Shown here piece by piece: positions 11,411 through 49,474 of a DNA stretch of 64,000 nucleotides. Both the position numbers and the translations under genes were made by a program. The notes beneath the pieces were generated by a model. That model saw only the letters and a program-made list of their open reading frames with translations, did not search any database and was not told the origin of the DNA. Every line of letters begins with the position of its first letter. Positions within the stretch are counted from its first letter, which is position 1. Origin of the DNA: Syntrophomonadaceae bacterium (GTDB lineage: Bacteria > Bacillota > Dethiobacteria > DTU022); assembly GCA_003554615.1 (NCBI GenBank), contig PWGX01000003.1, forward strand, positions 2,894-66,893, in the 5' to 3' direction.

Positions 11411-11893
11411 ATGTTTAAAATGGGCTTTGCTCTCTCCAAAATGCAGTTGAAAAGTTCAGCTTTTGAATCACGTGGAAAAATCCCCCGGAAACACACCGGG
11501 GAAGGGGAAGATGTTTCTCCCGCTTTGGAATGGACCAATGTTCCTGAAGGCACAGCTTCATTTGCAGTAATCTGCCACGATCCCGATGCGCCATTGGTTT
11601 CTCCCGGCACCTACGGGTTTGTCCACTGGGTCCTTTATAACATCCCCGGTTCAGTTACCAACCTTCCGGAAGACACACAGGATTATACTACCGGGATTAA
11701 CGATGCCCAAAAGCAGGGTTACATGGGTCCTATGCCTCCCGAGGGGCATGGTGTCCACCATTACTTCTTCTGGGTCCTGGCCCTGGATAAGGAGTTAAAC
11801 CTGGAACCGGGTCTGACCATGTGGCAGCTTTTAGAAAAAATCGAACCCCATGTTATCGGAATGAACCGCCTTGTAGGCAGCTATGAGAGGTAG
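11411..11893 (+). CDS. YbhB/YbcL-family phosphatidylethanolamine-binding (PEBP/Raf-kinase-inhibitor-like) protein
   Basis: IPRKHTGEGEDVSPALEW..VPEGTASFAVICHDPDAP....GHGVHHYFFWVLALD matches the bacterial PEBP signature. The true start may be an internal ATG (11420 or 11441). Confidence 0.75.
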   Translation: MFKMGFALSKMQLKSSAFESRGKIPRKHTGEGEDVSPALEWTNVPEGTASFAVICHDPDAPLVSPGTYGFVHWVLYNIPGSVTNLPEDTQDYTTGINDAQKQGYMGPMPPEGHGVHHYFFWVLALDKELNLEPGLTMWQLLEKIEPHVIGMNRLVGSYER

Positions 11894-12051
11894 CAACTTT
11901 AGATTTTAATCACTAATTCTTAGCCCGTGATCGTAATTAATCGTGCTGCATTTAACCCGATTATCCAATATTCATCTGCCAGTTATACCTCAACCTTAAC
12001 CGGGTAAAAAACTGCATAAAACAATAAAACATTTTTCCTGCACATTTAAAA

Positions 12052-12083
12052 GGGCTGCCTCATCGCCACCTTTGGGGCAGCCC
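12052..12083 (+). terminator. possible terminator hairpin
   Basis: Stem GGGCTGCC / GGCAGCCC with a 16-nt loop, followed by CGTTTCTTTC. The T-tract is weak. Confidence 0.35.
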
Positions 12084-12105
12084 CGTTTCTTTCATAAGTG
12101 AGGCT

Positions 12106-12190
12106 CCGGGTTGTCATTCTAAAGGGTTAATCCTTATTTTACTCTTTTTTCACCTTGCTTCCATGCTTATTAGCGATTTCAATTTAAAAA
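12106..12190 (+). repeat. conserved intergenic element, copy upstream of bamB
   Basis: It shares GTTA(A/G)(T/C)CC..ATTT(T/C)A..TTTT(C/A)ACCTTG-N-TTCCATGCTT...AG(C/G)GATTT with 35201-35290 and 49172-49250, all in the same orientation. Confidence 0.7.
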
Positions 12191-12472
12191 CTGTTCTTGT
12201 AAAGTAAGGTTAAATAGAGAAAATAAGGGGTTATATTATACAATCACCAATATTGACCGCATTTCGCAATTCGTCCGGCCACAGCATTTTTTGTTGCATA
12301 ATTGATTGTTTCAGTGTTCACGGCAAATAAAACAGGCCGGGCAAAACCTTTTATAACCGGGCCAGGCAAAATAACCCGGAAGAACAGTATTTTGACAGCG
12401 CCCGGGCATTAATGCATTGCTCTGTTTTCAAAAAGCACGTTTAGAGCAAAAAATAGCTAAGAGGTGTAAAAA

Positions 12473-23222: not shown

Positions 23223-25181
23223 CTATTTTTCCTGGAAAGCAAGCTCGATCATATAGACCCCGGAAGAAAATTTCTTCTCCACAATATGACCGGTTTTTTC
23301 CAGCAGGTGCAGGATATGCTTATTGTCCGGCAATATTTCTGCTGTAAAACCGGTCAACCCCTGTTTTTGAGCAATATTGGCCAAATAAGACAAAAGCTCG
23401 GAACCAAGGCCCCGGCCCTGGTAATCATCCCTGATCACCAGCGCTACCTGGGCGGTCAGGCTTCCCTCGAGCACCACGTACTGCCCCACCCCGATTACTA
23501 CTTCAGCTCCTTCATGCTCAATTGTAGCCAGGATCACCATCTCCCGGGTGTAATCGACAACCAGGAACAGATCCTGAAGCATCTCGCGGGGCATATCTTC
23601 ACGCCGGGACAAAAAGCGGTTATACCTGGTTTCTTCCGATAAGTTGTAAAAGAAATCCTTCAGGATGGGTTCATCGCTAATTTTCACCGGGCGCATGAAA
23701 AATTCAAGGCCCGCTTTAGTCGTTCTTCGCGTTTCCAGGTCGGCGGGATACTTGCCTTTTTCCCCGGGCATATAAGCCTGATCTTTGTATATTAAAGCAG
23801 CCTCTTTAGCTTCCTCGATCAACCAGGGTTGGAAAGAAGGATGAGCAATGGATATTAAAGCCATAGCCCTCTCCCTGACATTCTTGCCGTGCAGGTAAGC
23901 GATGCCGTATTCTGTGACCACGTAGTGGATATCCCCCCGAGTCAGGGTCACCCCGGCCCCTTCTTTAAGGAAGGGGACGATCCTGGAAACAGCGCCGTCC
24001 TGGGTTGTCGAGGGCAAAGCCAGGATGCTCCTGCCCCTTTTTGCCAGCACCGCTCCGCGCATGAAATCGGCCTGTCCCCCTATTCCGCTGAAAAAATACC
24101 TGCCCAGCGATTCGGCGGTGGCCTGCCCGGTTAAATCTATTTCCAGGGCTGTATTTATGGCTACCATATTTTTATTCATGGCAATATTGATCGGGTCGTT
24201 GGTATAGTCTATAGCCCTGAATTCTATGGCCGGGTTGTCATCCAGGTAATGGTATGTGTCCCTGGTCCCAATACAAAAAGAAGCGACGGTTTTGTCCCGG
24301 TCGACAGTTTTCCTGGAATTGTTGACTACTCCCCTTTTCATCAGGTCAACGATTCCGTCACCCAGCAGCTCCGAATGAATGCCGAGATCCTTTTTGTTTC
24401 TAAGGTTGGAAAGGATTGCATTCGGCATCACCCCGTAACCGACCTGGATAGTATCTCCGTCATCAATGATCCTGGCCACGTATTCACCAATTCTATCGAC
24501 CGCTTCCGGGGGCGCTTCGGGAGCTTCGTGTTCCAAAAGCGGCTCTTCATGAGGGACTACATAATCAACATCTTTAATATGAATAAACGTGTCCCCGTGA
24601 ATCCGGGGCATTTCTGAATTTACCTGGACAATTACCAGGGAGGCATTTTCTACGGCGGTTTTTGTAATGTCAATGCTGATCCCCATGCTCATGAACCCGT
24701 GGTTATCCGGTGGAGATACCTGGACCAATGCAACATCGACTGGCACCAACCGGCGTTTAAACAGGTCCGGAATATCGGAAGCAAAAATGGGCGTGTAATC
24801 GGCAAGTCCTTTATTAACTGCTTCCCTGGCATTTTCAGCAATAAAGAAAGTGTTGTGGCGAAAATTTTTCCTGAATTTCCGGTCCGTATACGGAACAACT
24901 CCAAGGGTCCAAACATGCAGGATCTCGGCATCAAAAAAAGCCTTGGGATTTGATTCGACAAACTTGATCATGGCCTGGACCAGATACTGAGGTTCACCGC
25001 AGGCTGTACCGATAAATATCCTGTCCCCGGCATGGATGTTGCTAAATATTTCATCCTCATGCACAAACTTCTCCGGGTAGTTTTGCTTTGCTTCTTCCAG
25101 GAAGCTTATTCTTTGCCCGTCATCCTCCCTTTTTAGATCTTCCTTAGCCATCTCCCGGTTGTCCTGTTCCCTTGCATCCAT
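23223..25181 (-). CDS. acetyl-CoA hydrolase/transferase-family protein fused to a C-terminal GNAT acetyltransferase domain
   Basis: 652 aa. The N-terminal ~460 aa resemble the 4-hydroxybutyrate CoA-transferase/Ach1 family (GTACGEPQ, GIGGQADF). The C-terminal ~160 aa contain the GNAT motif (VIRDDYQGRGLGSELL). It is convergent with bamI, with stops 14 nt apart. Confidence 0.7.
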   Translation of the reverse strand: MDAREQDNREMAKEDLKREDDGQRISFLEEAKQNYPEKFVHEDEIFSNIHAGDRIFIGTACGEPQYLVQAMIKFVESNPKAFFDAEILHVWTLGVVPYTDRKFRKNFRHNTFFIAENAREAVNKGLADYTPIFASDIPDLFKRRLVPVDVALVQVSPPDNHGFMSMGISIDITKTAVENASLVIVQVNSEMPRIHGDTFIHIKDVDYVVPHEEPLLEHEAPEAPPEAVDRIGEYVARIIDDGDTIQVGYGVMPNAILSNLRNKKDLGIHSELLGDGIVDLMKRGVVNNSRKTVDRDKTVASFCIGTRDTYHYLDDNPAIEFRAIDYTNDPINIAMNKNMVAINTALEIDLTGQATAESLGRYFFSGIGGQADFMRGAVLAKRGRSILALPSTTQDGAVSRIVPFLKEGAGVTLTRGDIHYVVTEYGIAYLHGKNVRERAMALISIAHPSFQPWLIEEAKEAALIYKDQAYMPGEKGKYPADLETRRTTKAGLEFFMRPVKISDEPILKDFFYNLSEETRYNRFLSRREDMPREMLQDLFLVVDYTREMVILATIEHEGAEVVIGVGQYVVLEGSLTAQVALVIRDDYQGRGLGSELLSYLANIAQKQGLTGFTAEILPDNKHILHLLEKTGHIVEKKFSSGVYMIELAFQEK

Positions 25182-26443: not shown

Positions 26444-26764
26444 TTGCAGCTGAAAAGGCCTTTTTACTCAACTTATTGCCTGCAACACCGGTTTTACAAT
26501 ACTCGAATAAGGTGGCCACGAATCCAGCCTGCCGCTATTGGCAAGGGCAATCCCGGGCCGACAATTAAAGATATCCTTGTTTATATTCAAAATTTACTGT
26601 ATACTATGAATGGAAGCGTTAAACGCCTTAATAATAGGTTAGACGGAGATATTACCGAATATCAAGGCGATCAGCTGCCACCTGAAGACCTTTAGTTTCA
26701 AACGGGTGCTAAAAGCTATTAAACAATTCTTCATAACCTATTAATGAAAGGGTGTGGACCAGAG

Positions 26765-27187
26765 ATGGATAAGATTTTACTGGCTACAGATGGATCCAAG
26801 CATTCCCAAAACACGATTGAGCAGGCTCAAAAGCTTGCCAAAAAGTTTAACGCTGAAGTGACCATTCTTTATGTCATCGAAGTAAATCCACAGCAGGGCT
26901 ATGACTTCTTTGCTTCTTACCAAAAGAAAGAGCAGGAGCTGATCCATGCCGGCGAAAAAGTTTTGCAAAAAACAGCTGAAGCTTTTAAAGGAGAAGGAAT
27001 CGAGATCAATACCAGGCTGGAAAAAGGAAATCCTGCCGATATTATCTGTGAGATAGCAGAAAAAGAAAACTATGAGCTTGTGATCTTAGGCGGCAGGGGC
27101 CTGGGCAAAATCAGCGGAGTCCTGCTGGGAAGCGTCAGCAATGCCGTAGCCAACTGCCTGAAGAATAATCTAATGATCGTTAAATAA
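26765..27187 (+). CDS. universal stress protein (UspA family)
   Basis: MDKILLATDGS...LVILGGRGLGKISGVLLGSVSNAV is the USP ATP-binding signature. Confidence 0.8.
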   Translation: MDKILLATDGSKHSQNTIEQAQKLAKKFNAEVTILYVIEVNPQQGYDFFASYQKKEQELIHAGEKVLQKTAEAFKGEGIEINTRLEKGNPADIICEIAEKENYELVILGGRGLGKISGVLLGSVSNAVANCLKNNLMIVK

Positions 27188-29323: not shown

Positions 29324-30460
29324 ATGAAAACCAAGCTTTTTTTGCTCATGCTAATTTTAGCCCTGGTGCTAGTGCCCGTTCTAAGCGGTTGCGAACCAGA
29401 AGAAGTACCGGTTGATGAACCTGAAGAACCGGTCGATGAACCTGAAGAACCGGTCGACGAACCTGAAGAAGAAGGTCAGAGTTTTACTCTTGAATTCGCC
29501 ACTTTCTGGCCCGAAGGCGATTTCCAGGTAGCAGATGGCCATAAAAGCTGGGCCCAGGAAATCAAAGATCAGGTAGAAGCGGAAACTCCTCACACGATCG
29601 ATTTTAACTGGCATTACGCCCAGGCGCTTCTTGAAATGCCCGAGATTTACGGGGGGGTTGCCGACGGGGTTGCCGATATTGGAACAACCTGCCCCGCTTA
29701 TACACCAGGAGTCTTTCCCCTTACCGATGTTTTCGAACAACCCGGTTTTAATAACGATAACGCCCTGGTTGCTTCTGTGACCATGCACGAAGCCTGGAAG
29801 CAGTACGAACCGCTGCAGGAAGAGTACGCCGACGTCAAGATCATGCATTTCTGGGCCACCGGTCCCGGCGACTTTATGACCAACACCAGGGTCGAGACCA
29901 TGGAAGACCTGGACGGCCTGGATATCCGGGCCGTCGGAGGGACAATACCCTGGGTAAGGGCCCTGGGGGCAAACCCGGTCTCATTTGGCATGGGAGCATC
30001 ATATGAAAACATAGAGACCGGTGTTGTTGACGGGCTGCTGGCACCAACCGACACGCTCAAAGGCTTCCGCCTGGCAGAGGTAACAGAATATATTACCAAG
30101 AGTCCGCCAAGCTATAACATTATATTCATGAAAGTGATGAACTGGGATACCTGGGATGCATTACCCGAGTCAGTGCAGCATATTATTGATGAAGTCAACG
30201 AACAATATGTTTATGAATACGGTGAGCTGAGAACAGATCATACCGTTGAAGGCCAAAGGTTCGGTGTCGAAGAGCACGGCATGGAAGTAATCGAACTCGA
30301 TGAAGACGAATGGCAGCGCTGGGTGGATCTAATCGACCCGCTCATGGAAGAATGGGTTGAAGAAGCAGAAGCAGCCGGCCTGCCCGGTCAGGAAGTTATG
30401 GATCTTGCCCTCGAACTTGATGCCAGGCACTCAGAAGATTACGGCGACTACGGCAACTAA
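29324..30460 (+). CDS. TRAP transporter substrate-binding lipoprotein (DctP type)
   Basis: Lipobox VLSG-C, followed by an acidic repeat linker and then a DctP-like fold. It is followed by the dctQ- and dctM-type genes. Confidence 0.75.
   Translation: MKTKLFLLMLILALVLVPVLSGCEPEEVPVDEPEEPVDEPEEPVDEPEEEGQSFTLEFATFWPEGDFQVADGHKSWAQEIKDQVEAETPHTIDFNWHYAQALLEMPEIYGGVADGVADIGTTCPAYTPGVFPLTDVFEQPGFNNDNALVASVTMHEAWKQYEPLQEEYADVKIMHFWATGPGDFMTNTRVETMEDLDGLDIRAVGGTIPWVRALGANPVSFGMGASYENIETGVVDGLLAPTDTLKGFRLAEVTEYITKSPPSYNIIFMKVMNWDTWDALPESVQHIIDEVNEQYVYEYGELRTDHTVEGQRFGVEEHGMEVIELDEDEWQRWVDLIDPLMEEWVEEAEAAGLPGQEVMDLALELDARHSEDYGDYGN
29402..29464 (+). repeat. in-frame 21-nt tandem repeat x3, encoding (E/V)PVDEPE units
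   Basis: The units are GAAGTACCGGTTGATGAACCT, GAAGAACCGGTCGATGAACCT and GAAGAACCGGTCGACGAACCT. They lie directly after the lipobox Cys. Confidence 0.9.
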
Positions 30461-30558
30461 ACAAGAATTAACAAGCTGTTAACAGCCTTGCGCTGCAGCT
30501 GCCTGTAGAACTGAAAGAGAGGGCTTTCACTCTGTTCAGAGGATAAAACTCTGGAGAG

Positions 30559-31122
30559 GTGAATGCCCTCTCTAAACGAATCAGTAAATATAAAAAAGCC
30601 GACGACAGGGGGCAGTTATACTTGCTAAAAATGTTTGAACGATTCGTGCAAATACTGACCTGGCGGACCGCACAGATAGCTCAAATAGCAATGATCATTG
30701 TAATGGCAATTACCGTAACCAACGTTATTATCCGTATTCCTTGGAGGCCGATCGGCGGGGCCGTCGAACTGGTGGAAATGTCAGGCGCAGTCCTGCTCGG
30801 CCTGGGGGTAGCTTACACGGCATTGATGAAAGGCCACATCATGGTCGGAATCCTGGTGGAACGTTTTTCACCGCGGGTGCAGGGCTTCATTGAACTGGTT
30901 GTAAGCATTATCTCACTTTTCTTCTCTTACTTCCTGGCCAGAGAAATATTATTCTTCGCCTATGACAGGATGATGGCCGGGTATGAAACCGGTCATTTAA
31001 AGATACCTATTGCTCCTTCTATATACCTGGTTGCTTTTGGCTTGATCATGCTGGCCCTGGTACTGCTGCTGGATATGATCAAAGCTGCAATAATTGTTGC
31101 TAAGGGGAGTGAAAATCAATGA
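30559..31122 (+). CDS. TRAP transporter small permease (DctQ type)
   Basis: About 187 aa with four predicted TM helices, positioned between the SBP and the large permease. The start is uncertain. Confidence 0.7.
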   Translation: MNALSKRISKYKKADDRGQLYLLKMFERFVQILTWRTAQIAQIAMIIVMAITVTNVIIRIPWRPIGGAVELVEMSGAVLLGLGVAYTALMKGHIMVGILVERFSPRVQGFIELVVSIISLFFSYFLAREILFFAYDRMMAGYETGHLKIPIAPSIYLVAFGLIMLALVLLLDMIKAAIIVAKGSENQ

Positions 31123-32423
31123 GCCCAATCCAAATCGGAATTGTTTCAATCTTGTTTGTGTTCGTCTTTCTGTTTGCCAGGATGCCCGTTGCTTACGTAA
31201 TGCTGGTGGTGGGAATGACCGGGTTTGCCATTGTTAGAAATCCTGACGCCATGTTTTCACTTTCCAGCCAAACCATCTACAATACTTTCGCTTCCTATTC
31301 CCTGCTGGTTGTTCCCATGTTCGTCTGGATGGGCTATATTGCTTTTTACTCCGGGTTAAGTTCAAGAATTTACGATGCCACCTACAAGGTCATGGGCAAC
31401 TTAAAAGCAGGCCTGCTATTGGCCACCATTGCCGCCTGCACCGCTTTCGGAGCCATCTGCGGATCGACAACAGCCACTGCGGCAACCATGAGTGCCGTGG
31501 CTCTCCCGGAAATGAAAAAATATAATTACGACCGCTCCATCTCCACGGCCACAATCGCAGCAGCCGCTATCCTGGGCGTAATGATCCCGCCCAGCGTAAT
31601 TTTTATCCTGTATGGAGTTTCTGCCGGCGAATCTATCCGCCGGCTCTTTTTGGCCGGGATATTCCCCGGATTTCTTTTAATGGCCCTTTTTATGGCAGCA
31701 GCCTACCTGCAAACAATGCGTAACCCTGCCCTGGCACCGGCGGGAGAAAGTGTCCCCTGGGCAGATAAGCTAAAAGCAGTAGTTAGCGGAGGGGTAGAAG
31801 TCATTATTATCTTCATCGCCGTGATGGGGGGGCTTTTTGGCGGAGTTTTTACCCCCACCGAAGCCGGGGCGGTGGGGGTTTTTTCCACCCTGGTCGTGGC
31901 CCTGATCAGGCGTCAGCTGAGCTGGGAAGGCTTTAAAAATTCACTAACGGACTCTGTCCGTATTTCGGCAATGATCATGTTCCTTGTTGCCGCAGCGGCT
32001 ATCTACGGCCGTTTCCTGGGCATAACAGGGTTACCAAGGGGGCTTGCTACCTGGGCGGTTGAACTGCCCCTTCCCCCCGTGGCCATCATATTTGTGATCC
32101 TGCTCATTTACCTGATCTTAGGGTTTTTCATTGATGCCCTGGCCCTGATCCTCCTCACGGTGCCCATTTTTTACCCGGTGGCGGTTGAGCTCGGCTTTGA
32201 TCCGATCTGGTTCGGGGTAATCATCGTTCTGGCCCTGGGTATGGGCGTTATTACACCGCCAGTTGGAGCTAATGTTTATGTCGTAGCCGGGGTGGACAGG
32301 GAAACCCCGGTCATGGAAATTTTCCGGGGGGTAGGGTGGTACCTGGTGGCAATTATTCTATGTGCCACTCTTTTAACTGCCTTCCCCCAGATTGCCCTGT
32401 ATCTGCCTGGTTTAATCAATTGA
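31119..32423 (+). CDS. TRAP transporter large permease (DctM type)
   Basis: 434-aa polytopic membrane protein with typical DctM blocks (GSTTATAATM, PPSVIFILYG, GVITPPVGANVYV). Its start overlaps the dctQ stop. Confidence 0.85.
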   Translation: MSPIQIGIVSILFVFVFLFARMPVAYVMLVVGMTGFAIVRNPDAMFSLSSQTIYNTFASYSLLVVPMFVWMGYIAFYSGLSSRIYDATYKVMGNLKAGLLLATIAACTAFGAICGSTTATAATMSAVALPEMKKYNYDRSISTATIAAAAILGVMIPPSVIFILYGVSAGESIRRLFLAGIFPGFLLMALFMAAAYLQTMRNPALAPAGESVPWADKLKAVVSGGVEVIIIFIAVMGGLFGGVFTPTEAGAVGVFSTLVVALIRRQLSWEGFKNSLTDSVRISAMIMFLVAAAAIYGRFLGITGLPRGLATWAVELPLPPVAIIFVILLIYLILGFFIDALALILLTVPIFYPVAVELGFDPIWFGVIIVLALGMGVITPPVGANVYVVAGVDRETPVMEIFRGVGWYLVAIILCATLLTAFPQIALYLPGLIN

Positions 32424-32538: not shown

Positions 32539-33273
32539 CTAGTTGTTGCCTGTATTGTCGTCGTTGAAATCACTTGGAACCGGTTTTTCTATAATAAACA
32601 GGCTGTCTTCGCTGTTCCTGCTCAATTTTACAGCCATTGATATAGCCTGGGTCCGGTTTTTGACCTGGAGTTTACGGTAAATATTGCGCAGGTGGGTTTT
32701 TACTGTATCAACCGCCAGGTTTGTTGCGGAGGAAATTTCTTTGTTGGTCAAACCCCGCACCAGGTGCCTTAAAATTTCCTGCTCCCGGGGAGTTAATTCG
32801 ACTGGCTCTTCTTCTTTTTTTAGCGGCTTTATTTCTGTATGCTTTTTACTCAGGCGGGTGTAATCACTAACAATTTGCCTGAAGACAGACTGATCAATAA
32901 TGGTTTCTCCGCCGTGCACCCTTTTAATGGTGTCAATCAAGTTCTGCCGGCTCACATGCTTAAGAATATAACCGGAAGCGCCGGCCTGCAAGGCCAGGCG
33001 GATCGATTCTGTATCTTCAAAGACAGTTAAAAAGATAATCTTAATACCCGGTTTTTGAGCCAGGATCTCCCTGGCCGACTCAATTCCGTTCACACCCTCC
33101 ATTTTTATATCCATCAGGATAACATCCGGATCGAGCGAATGGGCTTTTTCCAGGGCCTCTTTGCTGTCTTCGCAGCTTCCGGCCACAATAATCTCTTCAC
33201 TGTTGTCAAGCATGTTGGTTAAACCTTCTCTGACCATGGGATGGTCATCGACAATGAGTATGCTTATGGTCAA
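32539..33273 (-). CDS. NarL/LuxR-family response regulator (REC + HTH)
   Basis: ILIVDDHPMVREG...DVILMDIKM is the REC domain. LTPREQEILRHLVRGLTNKEIS is the LuxR-type HTH. It overlaps the kinase gene by 4 nt. Confidence 0.85.
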   Translation of the reverse strand: MTISILIVDDHPMVREGLTNMLDNSEEIIVAGSCEDSKEALEKAHSLDPDVILMDIKMEGVNGIESAREILAQKPGIKIIFLTVFEDTESIRLALQAGASGYILKHVSRQNLIDTIKRVHGGETIIDQSVFRQIVSDYTRLSKKHTEIKPLKKEEEPVELTPREQEILRHLVRGLTNKEISSATNLAVDTVKTHLRNIYRKLQVKNRTQAISMAVKLSRNSEDSLFIIEKPVPSDFNDDNTGNN

Positions 33274-34985
33274 TTTTCTTGCTCCTCTCCGGATGATGTT
33301 TTAGAGGGAATACTGACTTTAATTTTCGTGCCTTTGCCAGGTTGGGAATCAATTTTGCAATCTCCCTCCAGCAGCAGAGCCCGTTCCTGGATCCCGGCCA
33401 AGCCCAAACGATGCATGGGCTGGCTTTGATTATAGTTATTTTTAGTGATGCCAAATCCGTTGTCCTCGACAATCAGGCCCACATTTTCATCTTCAATATT
33501 AAGGCTGACCCTGACATTGGTAGCTCCAGCATGCTTGACTACGTTTGTCAGGGCTTCCTGCAGGATCCTGAACAAGGCCACCTCAGTTTTTGAATCCAAC
33601 CTCTGTTTTTCACCGGAGATTTCCAGTTCAATGGGCAGATCGTATTTCTCAATTATGCTGTTTACATGAGCCTCAACAGCCGGAATCAGGCCGTAATTAT
33701 CCAAAATAATGGGACGTAGATCATATAAGATCCGCCTGATCTCCTGGATCTGTTCATTTAGAACCCCCGTCAATTCCATTATCTCGCTATGCCAATTTTC
33801 CGGTTCCATCCCTTCAGATGAAGAAAGGCGCTGGAGGCGATACCAGATTGCGATCAGGGACTGGATTATTCCATCATGCAGGTCGGCGGCAATTATTTTA
33901 CGTTCATCCTCCTGGGCGGTAATCAACTTGTTGACCAGCTGGTGCAAAAGCTGTTCCTTTTGCCCGAGCATATCGATCAACCTGGCGTTTTCTATGGCAA
34001 CGGCAGTAGCCCGGGCAATGGCAAAAATAATTTCTACTTCTTCGCTGTCAAAGCCTTCCGCCTCCGGGGGGCGGTCAACCTGCATAATGCCAATGGTTTT
34101 ACCCTTACTCATAATAGGGGCCAGCACGACCCATCCATAATTAAAATCTTCCACAATTTCCCTTGTCATCATTTTTTCACTGTTCCGGGGTGTTACCACC
34201 ACCGGCTCTTTGGCATTGATTGCTTTTTTTATGGCCGGAAATGCCTTCCTACCTTTGAGAGCCTTAAATTTCCTTTTTAAAACCGGGTCGTAACTGCCCA
34301 CCGCCACAGTGGGGATAAGAGTCTGATCCTCATCTTGGAGGAGGTAAATACAGCTCTTGGATGAAAATAGATCGGCAGTTAGCTGGGCCACAACATGAAG
34401 AACCTGCCTGATATCCAGGGTAGAACTGATCGTATTAACCATTTCCAGCCACACGGAAAGTTTCCTAAGGTGACGGTCTTTCTGCCTCTGGAAAAGGGAT
34501 TCCTGGATAATATCGGCCATATGCCTCCCCAGGGAAGCAGCCTTGGCCAGCATGTATTCCCCAGTTTGGTAGTCGGTATTAAATATGCCGATTTCCATCA
34601 TTCCCACCGGGTCCCCGGCTTTTAAAAATACCGGCAAATTAGTGGATATAACCGGCGAAAGAAGATCGAGCAGCTTTTTATTGCGCCTGTTTTCGGGGTC
34701 GGAAAGATAGTTGTTTAACTGGACACAGCGTTCCGGGTGGACGGCAACGCCGCTTCCATGATTTTTCTTTTCCTTGGAGGCATGCCAGCAAACAGGCACT
34801 TTTCCATCACGAAGAAGCATTAATGTAGCCCGGCAAAAATCAAAATTATCTACTGAAGCCTGCAAGGTACCCTGCAGGGAGGAATCCACCTGCTCAATCG
34901 AATCGAAATTAGGACTGACACGGCAGATGAGGATTAACTCCGGTTTATCCTTATACTCTCCTGCATGCCTGTTTTCACCTGTCAA
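33270..34985 (-). CDS. cytoplasmic sensor histidine kinase with GAF domains (HisKA_3/NarX type)
   Basis: 571 aa with no TM helices. It has GAF-like regions, then the H-box AADLHDGIIQSL and HATPase_c (VEDNGFGI, GLAGIQERA). Confidence 0.8.
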   Translation of the reverse strand: MTGENRHAGEYKDKPELILICRVSPNFDSIEQVDSSLQGTLQASVDNFDFCRATLMLLRDGKVPVCWHASKEKKNHGSGVAVHPERCVQLNNYLSDPENRRNKKLLDLLSPVISTNLPVFLKAGDPVGMMEIGIFNTDYQTGEYMLAKAASLGRHMADIIQESLFQRQKDRHLRKLSVWLEMVNTISSTLDIRQVLHVVAQLTADLFSSKSCIYLLQDEDQTLIPTVAVGSYDPVLKRKFKALKGRKAFPAIKKAINAKEPVVVTPRNSEKMMTREIVEDFNYGWVVLAPIMSKGKTIGIMQVDRPPEAEGFDSEEVEIIFAIARATAVAIENARLIDMLGQKEQLLHQLVNKLITAQEDERKIIAADLHDGIIQSLIAIWYRLQRLSSSEGMEPENWHSEIMELTGVLNEQIQEIRRILYDLRPIILDNYGLIPAVEAHVNSIIEKYDLPIELEISGEKQRLDSKTEVALFRILQEALTNVVKHAGATNVRVSLNIEDENVGLIVEDNGFGITKNNYNQSQPMHRLGLAGIQERALLLEGDCKIDSQPGKGTKIKVSIPSKTSSGEEQEN

Positions 34986-35200
34986 GTGTACACCGCCTTT
35001 AATAGGGACCGGTTGTATAAATAATAAAGTTCATACCATACATACATTCATTATATGCCAGTATAAAACCTGCCATTTCGCTCTAATCTTTAGAATTAAC
35101 CTGCTCCTTTCACTGCCTGCCGGAAATCTGCGAAGGAAACTTTAAAAATTTCATTAAACTGTTTTTTTAATTTTATCTTTTCCTTTTTATGCAGTCAACA

Positions 35201-35290
35201 CAGGGCTTCACTTAGGGGTTCATCCTTAGGGGTTAGCCCCGATTTCATACTTTTTAACCTTGTTTCCATGCTTTTTAGGGATTTTTTTAG
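35201..35290 (+). repeat. conserved intergenic element, copy upstream of the SDR-thiolase-dehydratase-ior operon
   Basis: It has the same core as 12106-12190 and 49172-49250. This copy carries an internal duplication of CTTAGGGGTT. Confidence 0.7.
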
Positions 35291-35428
35291 TACTTGTTTT
35301 TATTTAAACTTAAATAAAGTGCCAATAGTATAAACAAATTTACTGCAACCTTTTCATTCAGTGGCAAAGCAGGAATATTTTAAATCAAAAACTGTACAGC
35401 CGATTATCAGCAGGAGGTGTTTAATTAC

Positions 35429-36175
35429 GTGCGCTTAAAGGGCAACGTGGCAATCGTAACCGGTGCCAGCAAAGGCATTGGCGAAGCGGTTTCTTTGGCC
35501 CTGGCCGGAGAAGGTGCTGACCTGGTCCTGGCCAGCCGAAGCATAAAAGAAGAAGATCCGGTGGTCCATAAAATAAGAAAAATGGGCCGCCGGGTCCTGG
35601 TCAGGCAGGTTGATGTTGGAAACAGCGGCCAGGTTTTTGACATGGTCAGGAACACGATGGATGAATACGGGCATATTGATGTGCTTTTCAATAATGCCGG
35701 TATTTTTAAACCGGCTATGCTCTGGAAGATGTCCCTGGATCAGTGGGACGAAGTTTTAAGAATCAACCTCAGTGGAACTTTTTACTGTCTTCAGGCCGTT
35801 GCAAAGCCGATGATCGAACAAAAAAAAGGTTCAATCATCAACGTAACTTCTTCAGCCGGCCTGATAGGAACCATCGGGCAGGTCAATTACACGGCGGCCA
35901 AGGGAGGGGTTCATGCCCTGACCAAATCAGCCGCCAAAGAACTGGCCCGCCACAATATCCGGGTTAATACAATCGCCCCGCTGGCAGAAACCGACATGAC
36001 CCAGGTTATCGCCTCCGATCCAAAGTTTAAAGAAAAGTATCTGGAACGGATCCCCCTGGGTCGCTTCGGAAAACCGGAAGAAATCGGACCGGCAGTTGTA
36101 TTCCTGGCTTCGGATGACTCGAGCTATATTACCGGCCAAACTCTGTGCATTGACGGTGGAATGATTATGCTTTAA
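35429..36175 (+). CDS. short-chain dehydrogenase/reductase (FabG/3-hydroxyacyl-CoA dehydrogenase-like)
   Basis: It carries TGASKGIG, NNAG and Y-x3-K (YTAAKGG). The GTG at 35429 lies 11 nt after AGGAGG. The ORF-track start at 35417 overlaps the SD. Confidence 0.8.
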   Translation: MRLKGNVAIVTGASKGIGEAVSLALAGEGADLVLASRSIKEEDPVVHKIRKMGRRVLVRQVDVGNSGQVFDMVRNTMDEYGHIDVLFNNAGIFKPAMLWKMSLDQWDEVLRINLSGTFYCLQAVAKPMIEQKKGSIINVTSSAGLIGTIGQVNYTAAKGGVHALTKSAAKELARHNIRVNTIAPLAETDMTQVIASDPKFKEKYLERIPLGRFGKPEEIGPAVVFLASDDSSYITGQTLCIDGGMIML

Positions 36176-49171: not shown

Positions 49172-49250
49172 CAGGGTCTTCAACCGAAGGTGTTAGCCCT
49201 GATTTCACCCTATTTTAACCTTGATTCCATGCTTTTAAGGGATTTTTTTA
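49172..49250 (+). repeat. conserved intergenic element, copy upstream of the DUF35-oah-dch-had operon
   Basis: It starts 4 nt after the paaK stop and has the same core and orientation as the copies at 12106 and 35201. Confidence 0.7.
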
Positions 49251-49474
49251 ACAATTATCTTTCATTAAGCTTAAGGGGAAGGCTAAAAAGGGAAAACACA
49301 AGAGCAGCCGCTGTATTTCAATCTAAACAAACACAATTTCAGTATTTATTATCGATCCACCCGGCCAGTGATGAGCAGGCGGAAACTATACCACAATATA
49401 TATCGGTCCCAGCGCCAAGTCAATAATTTAAGCACGGCAAAGCGGGCAGTTAGTTGCCGGAGGAGGTAAGCAAA

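Follow-up and report, generated by a model that had tools for sequence, protein, structure and literature searches.

Genomic context of the cassette

The stretch of DNA analysed in this study, referred to as the window (64 kb), is a benzoyl-CoA degradation island of an uncultured Bacillota, and the named records closest to it are soda-lake 'Syntrophomonadaceae' and Dethiobacteria MAGs. Within the window, the region 35201-35290 lies between the gene for a GAF sensor kinase, carried on the minus strand (33270-34985), and an SDR gene that probably starts at 35429, in agreement with the divergent position between the kinase gene and the SDR operon given in a preliminary description of this DNA. 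The conserved unit exceeds the bounds noted there. It runs from about position 35199 to a -10 hexamer at 35305-35310 and constitutes a control region of about 120 bp with both boxes and a promoter, which is referred to as the cassette. This is copy 2 of three, and the other two copies and the regulatory genes next to copy 2 are as follows.

12106-12205, plus strand: copy 1 of the cassette, upstream of a bamB-like benzoyl-CoA reductase operon (core at 12159-12168; -10 hexamer TAAAGT at 12200-12205)
49172-49271, plus strand: copy 3 of the cassette, upstream of DUF35-oah-dch-had (core at 49225-49234; -10 hexamer TAAGCT at 49266-49271)
33270-34985, minus strand: sensor kinase with GAF, HisKA_3 and HATPase domains (Pfam; 571 aa), the proposed signal input
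32539-33273, minus strand: NarL/LuxR-family response regulator with REC and GerE HTH domains (Pfam), the proposed activator; its gene overlaps the kinase gene by 4 nt

The earlier claim that the elements at 12106 and 49172 are the same as the one studied here is upheld, as the three copies can be aligned over about 100 nt with a mean column identity of 76%, and the sequence TTCCATGCTT is found exactly at 12159, 35264 and 49225. An nhmmer search of the 983-kb, 56-contig assembly recovered only these three cassettes (E values of 1e-24 to 1e-26), the next match having an E value above 1. All three share their orientation with the aromatic-catabolic operons that they precede: copy 1 heads the gene for a BamB-like tungsten aldehyde:ferredoxin oxidoreductase together with BamC- and BamD-like genes; copy 2 heads the SDR/thiolase operon; and copy 3 heads a DUF35 gene, Oah (TIGR03200, above cut-off), a dienoyl-CoA hydratase-like gene and Had (TIGR03201, above cut-off). 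Besides the NarL-family regulator, no gene for another DNA-binding protein, regulator or sigma factor was found in the island.

Directly 5' of copy 1 (12035-12095) there is a G+C-rich hairpin, GGGCTGCC...GGGGCAGCCCC, followed by TTTCTTTC, which probably terminates transcription of the PEBP-family gene at 11411-11893; an equivalent hairpin is also present in relatives. A universal stress protein gene and a DctPQM-type TRAP transporter (26744-27187; 29324-32423) adjoin the regulator gene inside the aromatic island, and no cassette is found at the universal stress protein gene or at the transporter genes. Universal stress protein genes also cluster with DevR/OsdR systems (PMC5069765).

Boxes, spacer and core

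The part of copy 2 that lies upstream of the -10 hexamer can be divided into the following features.

35211-35224, plus strand: box A, a putative upstream regulator box, CTTAGGGGTTCATC, the first 10 nt of which are the same as in box B
35225-35240, plus strand: box B, the near-palindrome CTTAGGGGTTAGCCCC (family consensus AAGGGTTAACCCTT)
35241-35255, plus strand: T-rich spacer GATTTCATACTTTTT between box B and the core; its T columns are nearly invariant in a 41-copy alignment
35256-35285, plus strand: invariant core AACCTTGTTTCCATGCTTTTTAGGGATTTT, with columns that are invariant or at least 90% conserved
35264-35273, plus strand: TTCCATGCTT, inside the invariant core
35275-35283, plus strand: third box TTAGGGATT, inside the core and overlapping the -35 position

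It had been noted previously that CTTAGGGGTT occurs twice in this copy. This is correct, except that the second occurrence lies at 35225-35234, one base off from the 35226-35235 given earlier; the first is at 35211-35220. These are the sole two occurrences in the 64 kb (0.19 expected), and none of 100 shuffled sequences reached two. The related pattern TTAGGGRTT is found three times in the window (positions 35212, 35226 and 35275), always on the plus strand and within 72 bp.

The likeness between boxes A and B is a property of the whole family. Over 64 copies, the two boxes agree on average at 6.7 of 13 positions at an offset of 14 nt, compared with 2.0 to 3.7 of 13 at other offsets from 8 to 25, apart from offset 13, where a value of 4.8 arises through register shifts. 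The box B consensus from 82 distinct copies, AAGGGTTAACCCTT, is a perfect 14-bp palindrome. As the period of 14 nt equals the length of this palindrome, two palindrome-length sites abut. An operator for a NarL/LuxR-family protein would have paired or palindromic half-sites of about 7 bp, and this is the arrangement seen here, with a palindromic box B and a further box 14 nt upstream.

In copy 2 itself, boxes A and B are identical at 9 of 13 positions. In the nearest relative (genome G009, contig C44, around 25120-25160), 12 of 13 positions agree, with two tandem occurrences of TTAGGGGTTAGCCC, a likeness which suggests that box A was overwritten by a copy of box B in an ancestor shared by the source genome and G009. 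A near-perfect box A is confined to these two genomes, the other members of the genus carrying a box A of the GGTGTTCATCC type. The internal duplication proposed previously does not hold, as copy 2 aligns to its orthologues without gaps and has gained no length. From these alignments, what looked like a duplication is better described as a lineage-specific sharpening of a box A common to all cassettes than as an added repeat.

The third box fares differently. The three direct TTAGGG(G/A)TT repeats of the preliminary description are genuine in the sequence of this lineage but not in the family as a whole, where the third box reads AAG[G/C/T]GAT and matrix scans placed it no higher than permuted controls. 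When a box B half-site matrix was used, the highest-scoring sequences other than box B itself were this third box and, at the 5' end of the core, TAACCTT in reverse, with scores of 2.7 and 3.5 bits that fall within the range of permuted matrices. The sequence TTCCATGCTT is unlike boxes A and B, and we could name no counterpart for it. As the half-sites flanking it (TAACCTT in reverse and AGGGATT) are no better than permuted controls, a second factor may bind the core.

The T-rich spacer might have a role in DNA bending. The invariant ATG within TTCCATGCTT opens a 21-codon frame in copy 2 (35268-35333), and the corresponding frames have 14 codons in copy 1 and 65 codons in copy 3. The frame often stops right after the -10 hexamer.

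Predicted promoter architecture

Two promoters facing away from each other can be placed in the region, together with the leader of the SDR operon.

35305-35310, plus strand: -10 hexamer TAAACT of the SDR-operon promoter, located by a tally of TAnnnT positions
35317-35428, plus strand: probable 5' untranslated leader of the SDR operon, with AGGAGG at 35412-35417 and a probable GTG start at 35429
35170-35198, minus strand: predicted divergent sigma-A promoter of the kinase/regulator operon (-35 hexamer TTGACT, 35198-35193; 17-nt spacer; -10 hexamer TAAAAT, 35175-35170)

Of 65 distinct copies, 63 have the motif TAnnnT at +38 and two have it at +37, counted from the C of CATGC, while the frequency of the motif at each remaining offset between +18 and +63 is at most 0.17. 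Fifteen different hexamers occupy this place, such as TAAGCT, TAAAGT, TAAAAT, TAAACT, TACAAT and TATGAT. The 22 nt between the core and the -10 hexamer have wholly diverged in sequence in distant copies with the spacing retained. In metagenomes, the same placement is kept in 37 of the 42 distinct matches that reach far enough; among the five misses, two match the pattern by chance and in two the hexamer is shifted to +37. A TAnnnT motif fixed in this way is what the signature of a sigma-A -10 element would look like, and we read it as such. A TTGACA-like -35 hexamer is absent from the stretch 16 to 18 nt upstream of the -10 element, which is T-rich instead (TTTTTT, TTTTAT, etc.), and the -35 position of copy 2 (35282-35287) reads TTTTTT. 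With no usable -35 hexamer, RNA polymerase most likely requires an activator at this promoter.

Transcription of the SDR operon would start at about 35317. The resulting leader of about 110 nt shows no conservation beyond the genus, and alignments of SDR orthologues begin at residue 5 of the open reading frame called from 35417. Copies 1 and 3 are directly preceded by a terminator hairpin or by the stop codon of the preceding gene, copy 3 following the stop codon of a paaK-like gene, which leaves no space for a promoter further upstream. Cassette and start codon are between 87 and about 440 nt apart. A further block, TTAAATAAAGTGCCAATAGTATAAACAAATT at 35311-35345, is common to the kinase-adjacent copies within the genus, not beyond it. 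With a TATAAA inside it, the block might serve as a second promoter or be a conserved beginning of the leader.

The divergent promoter of the kinase/regulator operon agrees with the consensus at 10 of 12 positions in a consensus scan, and its -35 hexamer sits 12 nt from box A. A minus-strand TTGACn-N16-18-TAnnnT pattern at -57 to -70 from CATGC is present in 22 of 28 copies that are kinase-adjacent or unclassified, and in no copy upstream of bamB or DUF35/oah. The typical form is TTGACn-17-TA(T/A)AAT, and its distance from the cassette is almost constant.

Distribution of the cassette and its linkage to the kinase/regulator pair

A BLAST search with copy 2 detected the element in 12 of 14 genomes of the genus when E values up to 1 were allowed (nine of them at E <1e-5), and clear matches were found in three further genera of the family. 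The copies keep a syntenic spacing. Of the 149 genomes of the class, 30, from two families, contain the core pattern TYCATGCTTNYNAGNGAT, with one to three copies each, whereas none of the 149 matched the reversed control pattern. Profile searches of BamB loci taken from public genomes added three MAGs with the cassette, one from Peptococcaceae, one labelled Armatimonadota and one other from Bacillota; no cassette was found by these searches in Deltaproteobacteria or Dehalococcoidia. A longer core pattern gave 46 matches in a metagenome collection, of which 44 are true cassettes, many of them from soda-lake sediments. In every classified copy, from genomes and metagenome contigs alike, the co-oriented downstream gene is bamB, the SDR gene or DUF35/oah, and the copies at SDR genes have the kinase gene upstream on the opposite strand. 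The cassette is kept from Dethiobacteria-like MAGs to Peptococcaceae despite diverged flanks.

The kinase encoded beside copy 2 has no hydrophobic or membrane segment that we could find, pointing to a soluble protein, and its kinase core is DesK/VraS/DosT-like. Residues 1-184 have no Pfam match, and the GAF domain has no specific sequence match to the haem-binding GAF domains of DevS/DosT. A structural model (pLDDT 64, i.e. moderate) predicts an alpha/beta sensor-like N-terminal domain of about 180 residues before the Pfam GAF domain, and generic HisKA_3 and phytochrome-type kinases were all that a fold search with the kinase returned. Among solved structures, the regulator is closest to VraR, NarL and DevR.

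A search of the class with the kinase gave a bimodal result. Full-length orthologues (58-100% identity, E <1e-200) were obtained from 31 of the 149 genomes, a number that takes in two fragmentary matches near 1e-130, and all other matches are to the kinase core only, at about 1e-40. Most of these 31 genomes (27) also belong to the 30 that bear the exact core pattern, and the majority of the others have a variant cassette beside the kinase gene. Where the exact pattern was missing beside the kinase gene, seven genomes have a variant cassette directly upstream of that gene, one of them weakly; G089 has the kinase and no cassette in the upstream stretch examined, and G151 has no cassette beside the kinase. 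Genome G004 shows the opposite case, having the cassette and no detected kinase, on a contig that ends at the cassette. In the three outgroup genomes with a cassette, orthologues of the kinase (43-57% identity) and of the regulator (56-62% identity) are present in all three, the regulator following the kinase, and in the Peptococcaceae MAG the gene order is as in the window (SDR gene, cassette, kinase, regulator). Two Bacillota/Dethiobacteria MAGs (G152 and G153) whose BamB proteins are 82-83% identical to that of the window have neither a kinase orthologue nor a cassette; their bam genes must be controlled in some other way.

The regulator and its presumed sites are therefore both linked and co-distributed, as would be expected for a NarL/LuxR-family protein and its operator. 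This correlation is the best argument we have that the kinase/regulator pair and the cassette belong together, but as cassette, kinase and catabolic genes are carried on one island, the co-occurrence is partly due to linkage and shared ancestry, which inflates it.

Proposed mechanism and alternatives

The architecture of the cassette, the position of its -10 hexamer, the lack of RNA structure, its restriction to three kinds of operon, and its linkage to and joint occurrence with the kinase/regulator pair are what the comparisons show. On this basis, we propose that the cassette is an activator-dependent sigma-A promoter of a benzoyl-CoA regulon, with the neighbouring NarL-family regulator as its likely activator, a reading to which we assign a probability of roughly 0.7. 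The region 35199-35317 would be a compact two-way control region, the plus strand of which would provide one of three paralogous promoter cassettes for the benzoyl-CoA degradation regulon. In each cassette, the order would be two abutting 14-bp boxes (A and the palindromic B), a T-rich spacer, an invariant core of about 30 bp and, 22 nt later, the -10 hexamer. An activator bound over the core and boxes A and B would recruit RNA polymerase to the cassette. The best candidate for this activator would be the phosphorylated form of the NarL-family response regulator encoded 2 kb away, and the soluble GAF kinase may sense an intracellular signal, either an aryl-CoA or a redox cue. We infer from the comparisons which protein binds where, that it activates rather than represses, what the signal is and exactly where transcription starts. 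As the kinase operon has a near-consensus promoter on the minus strand with its -35 hexamer only 12 nt from box A, the regulator, when bound here, might also control its own production. The setting of copy 2 is divergent and probably autoregulatory.

The alternative that survives best, though we consider it unlikely, is that some protein other than the neighbouring response regulator, such as an unlinked transcription factor or an alternative sigma factor, recognises the invariant core of the promoter, with the two-component system acting only through boxes A and B or being uninvolved. The core, TTCCATGCTT and its flanks, is the most conserved 30 bp of the cassette and yet does not resemble the palindromic box B, and its location at -61 to -33 is one that sigma region 4 or a class II activator would occupy. 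However, the cluster contains no further regulator or sigma gene, the fixed TAnnnT suits the housekeeping sigma factor, and the cassette tracks the kinase/regulator pair even among bamB-positive genomes. Neither ECF-like nor sigma-54-like spacings fit. Sigma-54, ECF-type and sigma-B-type readings of the core were each considered and rejected by eye, the spacings being wrong.

It is still less probable that the boxes are repression operators that keep the three operons off until an inducer is present. Regulators of benzoyl-CoA pathways, such as BzdR and BadR, include repressors, and a protein on the core, which overlaps the -35 position, could block polymerase. However, repressed promoters normally retain a good -35 hexamer, while most copies of the cassette have TTTTTT or a similar sequence in its place; the divergent kinase promoter, by contrast, is near-consensus.

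A cis-regulatory RNA, such as a riboswitch-like leader, an attenuator or a leader peptide beginning at the invariant ATG, is very improbable. Several properties would suit an RNA: the copies are about 100 nt long and strand-specific, they always lie 5' of genes, copy 3 comes directly after the paaK-like stop codon, and the ATG is invariant. However, RNAalifold gave no consensus base pair for 41 distinct copies. The sole visible hairpin, GGGG-TTAG-CCCC, is 84% paired compared with 82% in column shuffles, so that there is no covariation, and 17 of the 41 sequences cannot form one of its four pairs. Single-sequence fold energies are ordinary on both strands (z-scores of -1.8 to +0.4), Rfam gave no match at its gathering and E-value thresholds, and the cassettes lie at varying distances from the start codon. 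A leader peptide was rejected, as the open reading frame that opens at the invariant ATG varies from 5 to 112 codons, has no Shine-Dalgarno sequence and shows no conservation beyond that of the DNA core; we judge this frame to be an accident of conserved DNA. The preliminary view that the pattern is more typical of protein-binding DNA than of an RNA fold is therefore borne out by the missing consensus structure, the lack of covariation in the hairpin and the fixed -10 hexamer, and, as far as sequences can tell, the cassette is an element of control at the level of DNA, not RNA.

Finally, the idea that the cassette is a dispersed repeat or a mobile-element remnant (REP- or MITE-like) with no regulatory role, prompted by its first having been spotted as a repeated intergenic sequence, can practically be dismissed, as there are at most three copies per genome among 149 class genomes, always in the same three gene contexts and orientation and conserved to Peptococcaceae with diverged flanks, and as no copies in unrelated contexts, terminal inverted repeats or target-site duplications were seen.

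Significance of the cassette

The cassette is real, conserved and strand-specific. The kind of element, a promoter under two-component control, is ordinary; its regulon and its candidate regulator are undescribed in the literature that we searched, in which we found no description of the cassette. Likewise, that literature describes nothing on how the tungsten-dependent benzoyl-CoA reductase pathway is switched on in Gram-positive strict anaerobes. The cassette delimits a regulon from sequence alone, comprising the bamB, aryl-acid/beta-oxidation and oah-dch-had operons, and it points to a candidate sensor and a candidate regulator, which are open to in vitro tests with synthetic DNA. A specific signature of 18-26 nt for spotting such degraders in metagenomes is a further result.

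A bolder reading, which we hold only tentatively and think somewhat doubtful, is that the cassette and the GAF kinase/NarL-type pair form an undescribed master switch for the class II (Bam) pathway in Gram-positive anaerobes, with a kinase that senses aryl-CoA or redox state directly and a composite binding site. The composite site would consist of two abutting palindromes together with split half-sites two helical turns apart around TTCCATGCTT.

Comparison with known systems

Among the regulators of benzoyl-CoA pathways, BamVW and BgeR provide dedicated control of the bam genes in Geobacter. Together with BzdR, they differ from the system proposed here in being a sigma-54 activator or an XRE-type repressor, in their DNA sites and in belonging to Proteobacteria. 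BzdR controls the PN promoter of Azoarcus (PMC6678401). BadR, too, is a proteobacterial regulator of another type. In our literature search, no control system like BamVW or BzdR was described for Gram-positive clusters with class II benzoyl-CoA reductases.

The promoters controlled by E. coli NarL are similar in having a NarL-family regulator and paired sites. The NarL heptamer is TACYYMT (complement AKRRGTA), used in 7-2-7 sites, and AGGGGTT fits this complement at six of its seven positions. The cassette differs in its 7-0-7 arrangement, in its abutting boxes with a 14-bp period and in its extra promoter-proximal core.

A closer geometry is offered by the NreBC system of Staphylococcus. We take the NreC site to be TAGGG-N4-CCCTA, which would have the same arm and spacer geometry as box B. 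The sequences of the boxes differ from box B, no shared cassette of 100 bp is known from that system, and NreB senses through a PAS domain with an Fe-S cluster, whereas the kinase of the window has a GAF domain. At the nar and nir promoters, NreC is a NarL-family activator of Bacillota, and the GC-rich palindrome to which it binds is found ahead of several operons that belong to a single pathway (PMC8139620).

In its parts and logic, the system closest to the one in the window is that of DevS/DosT-DevR (DosR) in Mycobacterium tuberculosis and of OsdK-OsdR in Streptomyces coelicolor. They have in common a soluble GAF-HisKA_3 kinase of about 570 aa and a NarL-family regulator, and we assume that the layout and size of the kinase (N-terminal domain, GAF, 571 aa) are the same overall as in DevS/DosT. 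Multiple sites upstream of several operons, together with autoregulation, are also DevR/OsdR-like. OsdR binds G-rich palindromes with outer AGGG...CCCT arms and the consensus AGGGCCGATCGGCCCT (PMC5069765). We compared box B with the Dos box (AGGGCCGATCGGCCCT / TTSGGGACTWWAGTCCCSAA, a palindrome of 16-20 bp) and rejected the match, as only the AGGG and CCCT arms are common to both. These arms are separated by 4 nt in box B (AAGGGTTAACCCTT) and by 8 nt in the Dos box, and with this shorter centre, box B is not a Dos box. The core sequence TTCCATGCTT, moreover, has no counterpart in the DevR/OsdR systems. The cassette may therefore be regarded as functionally Dos-box-like while standing outside that family, with a regulon devoted to aromatic catabolism where that of DevR is devoted to dormancy.
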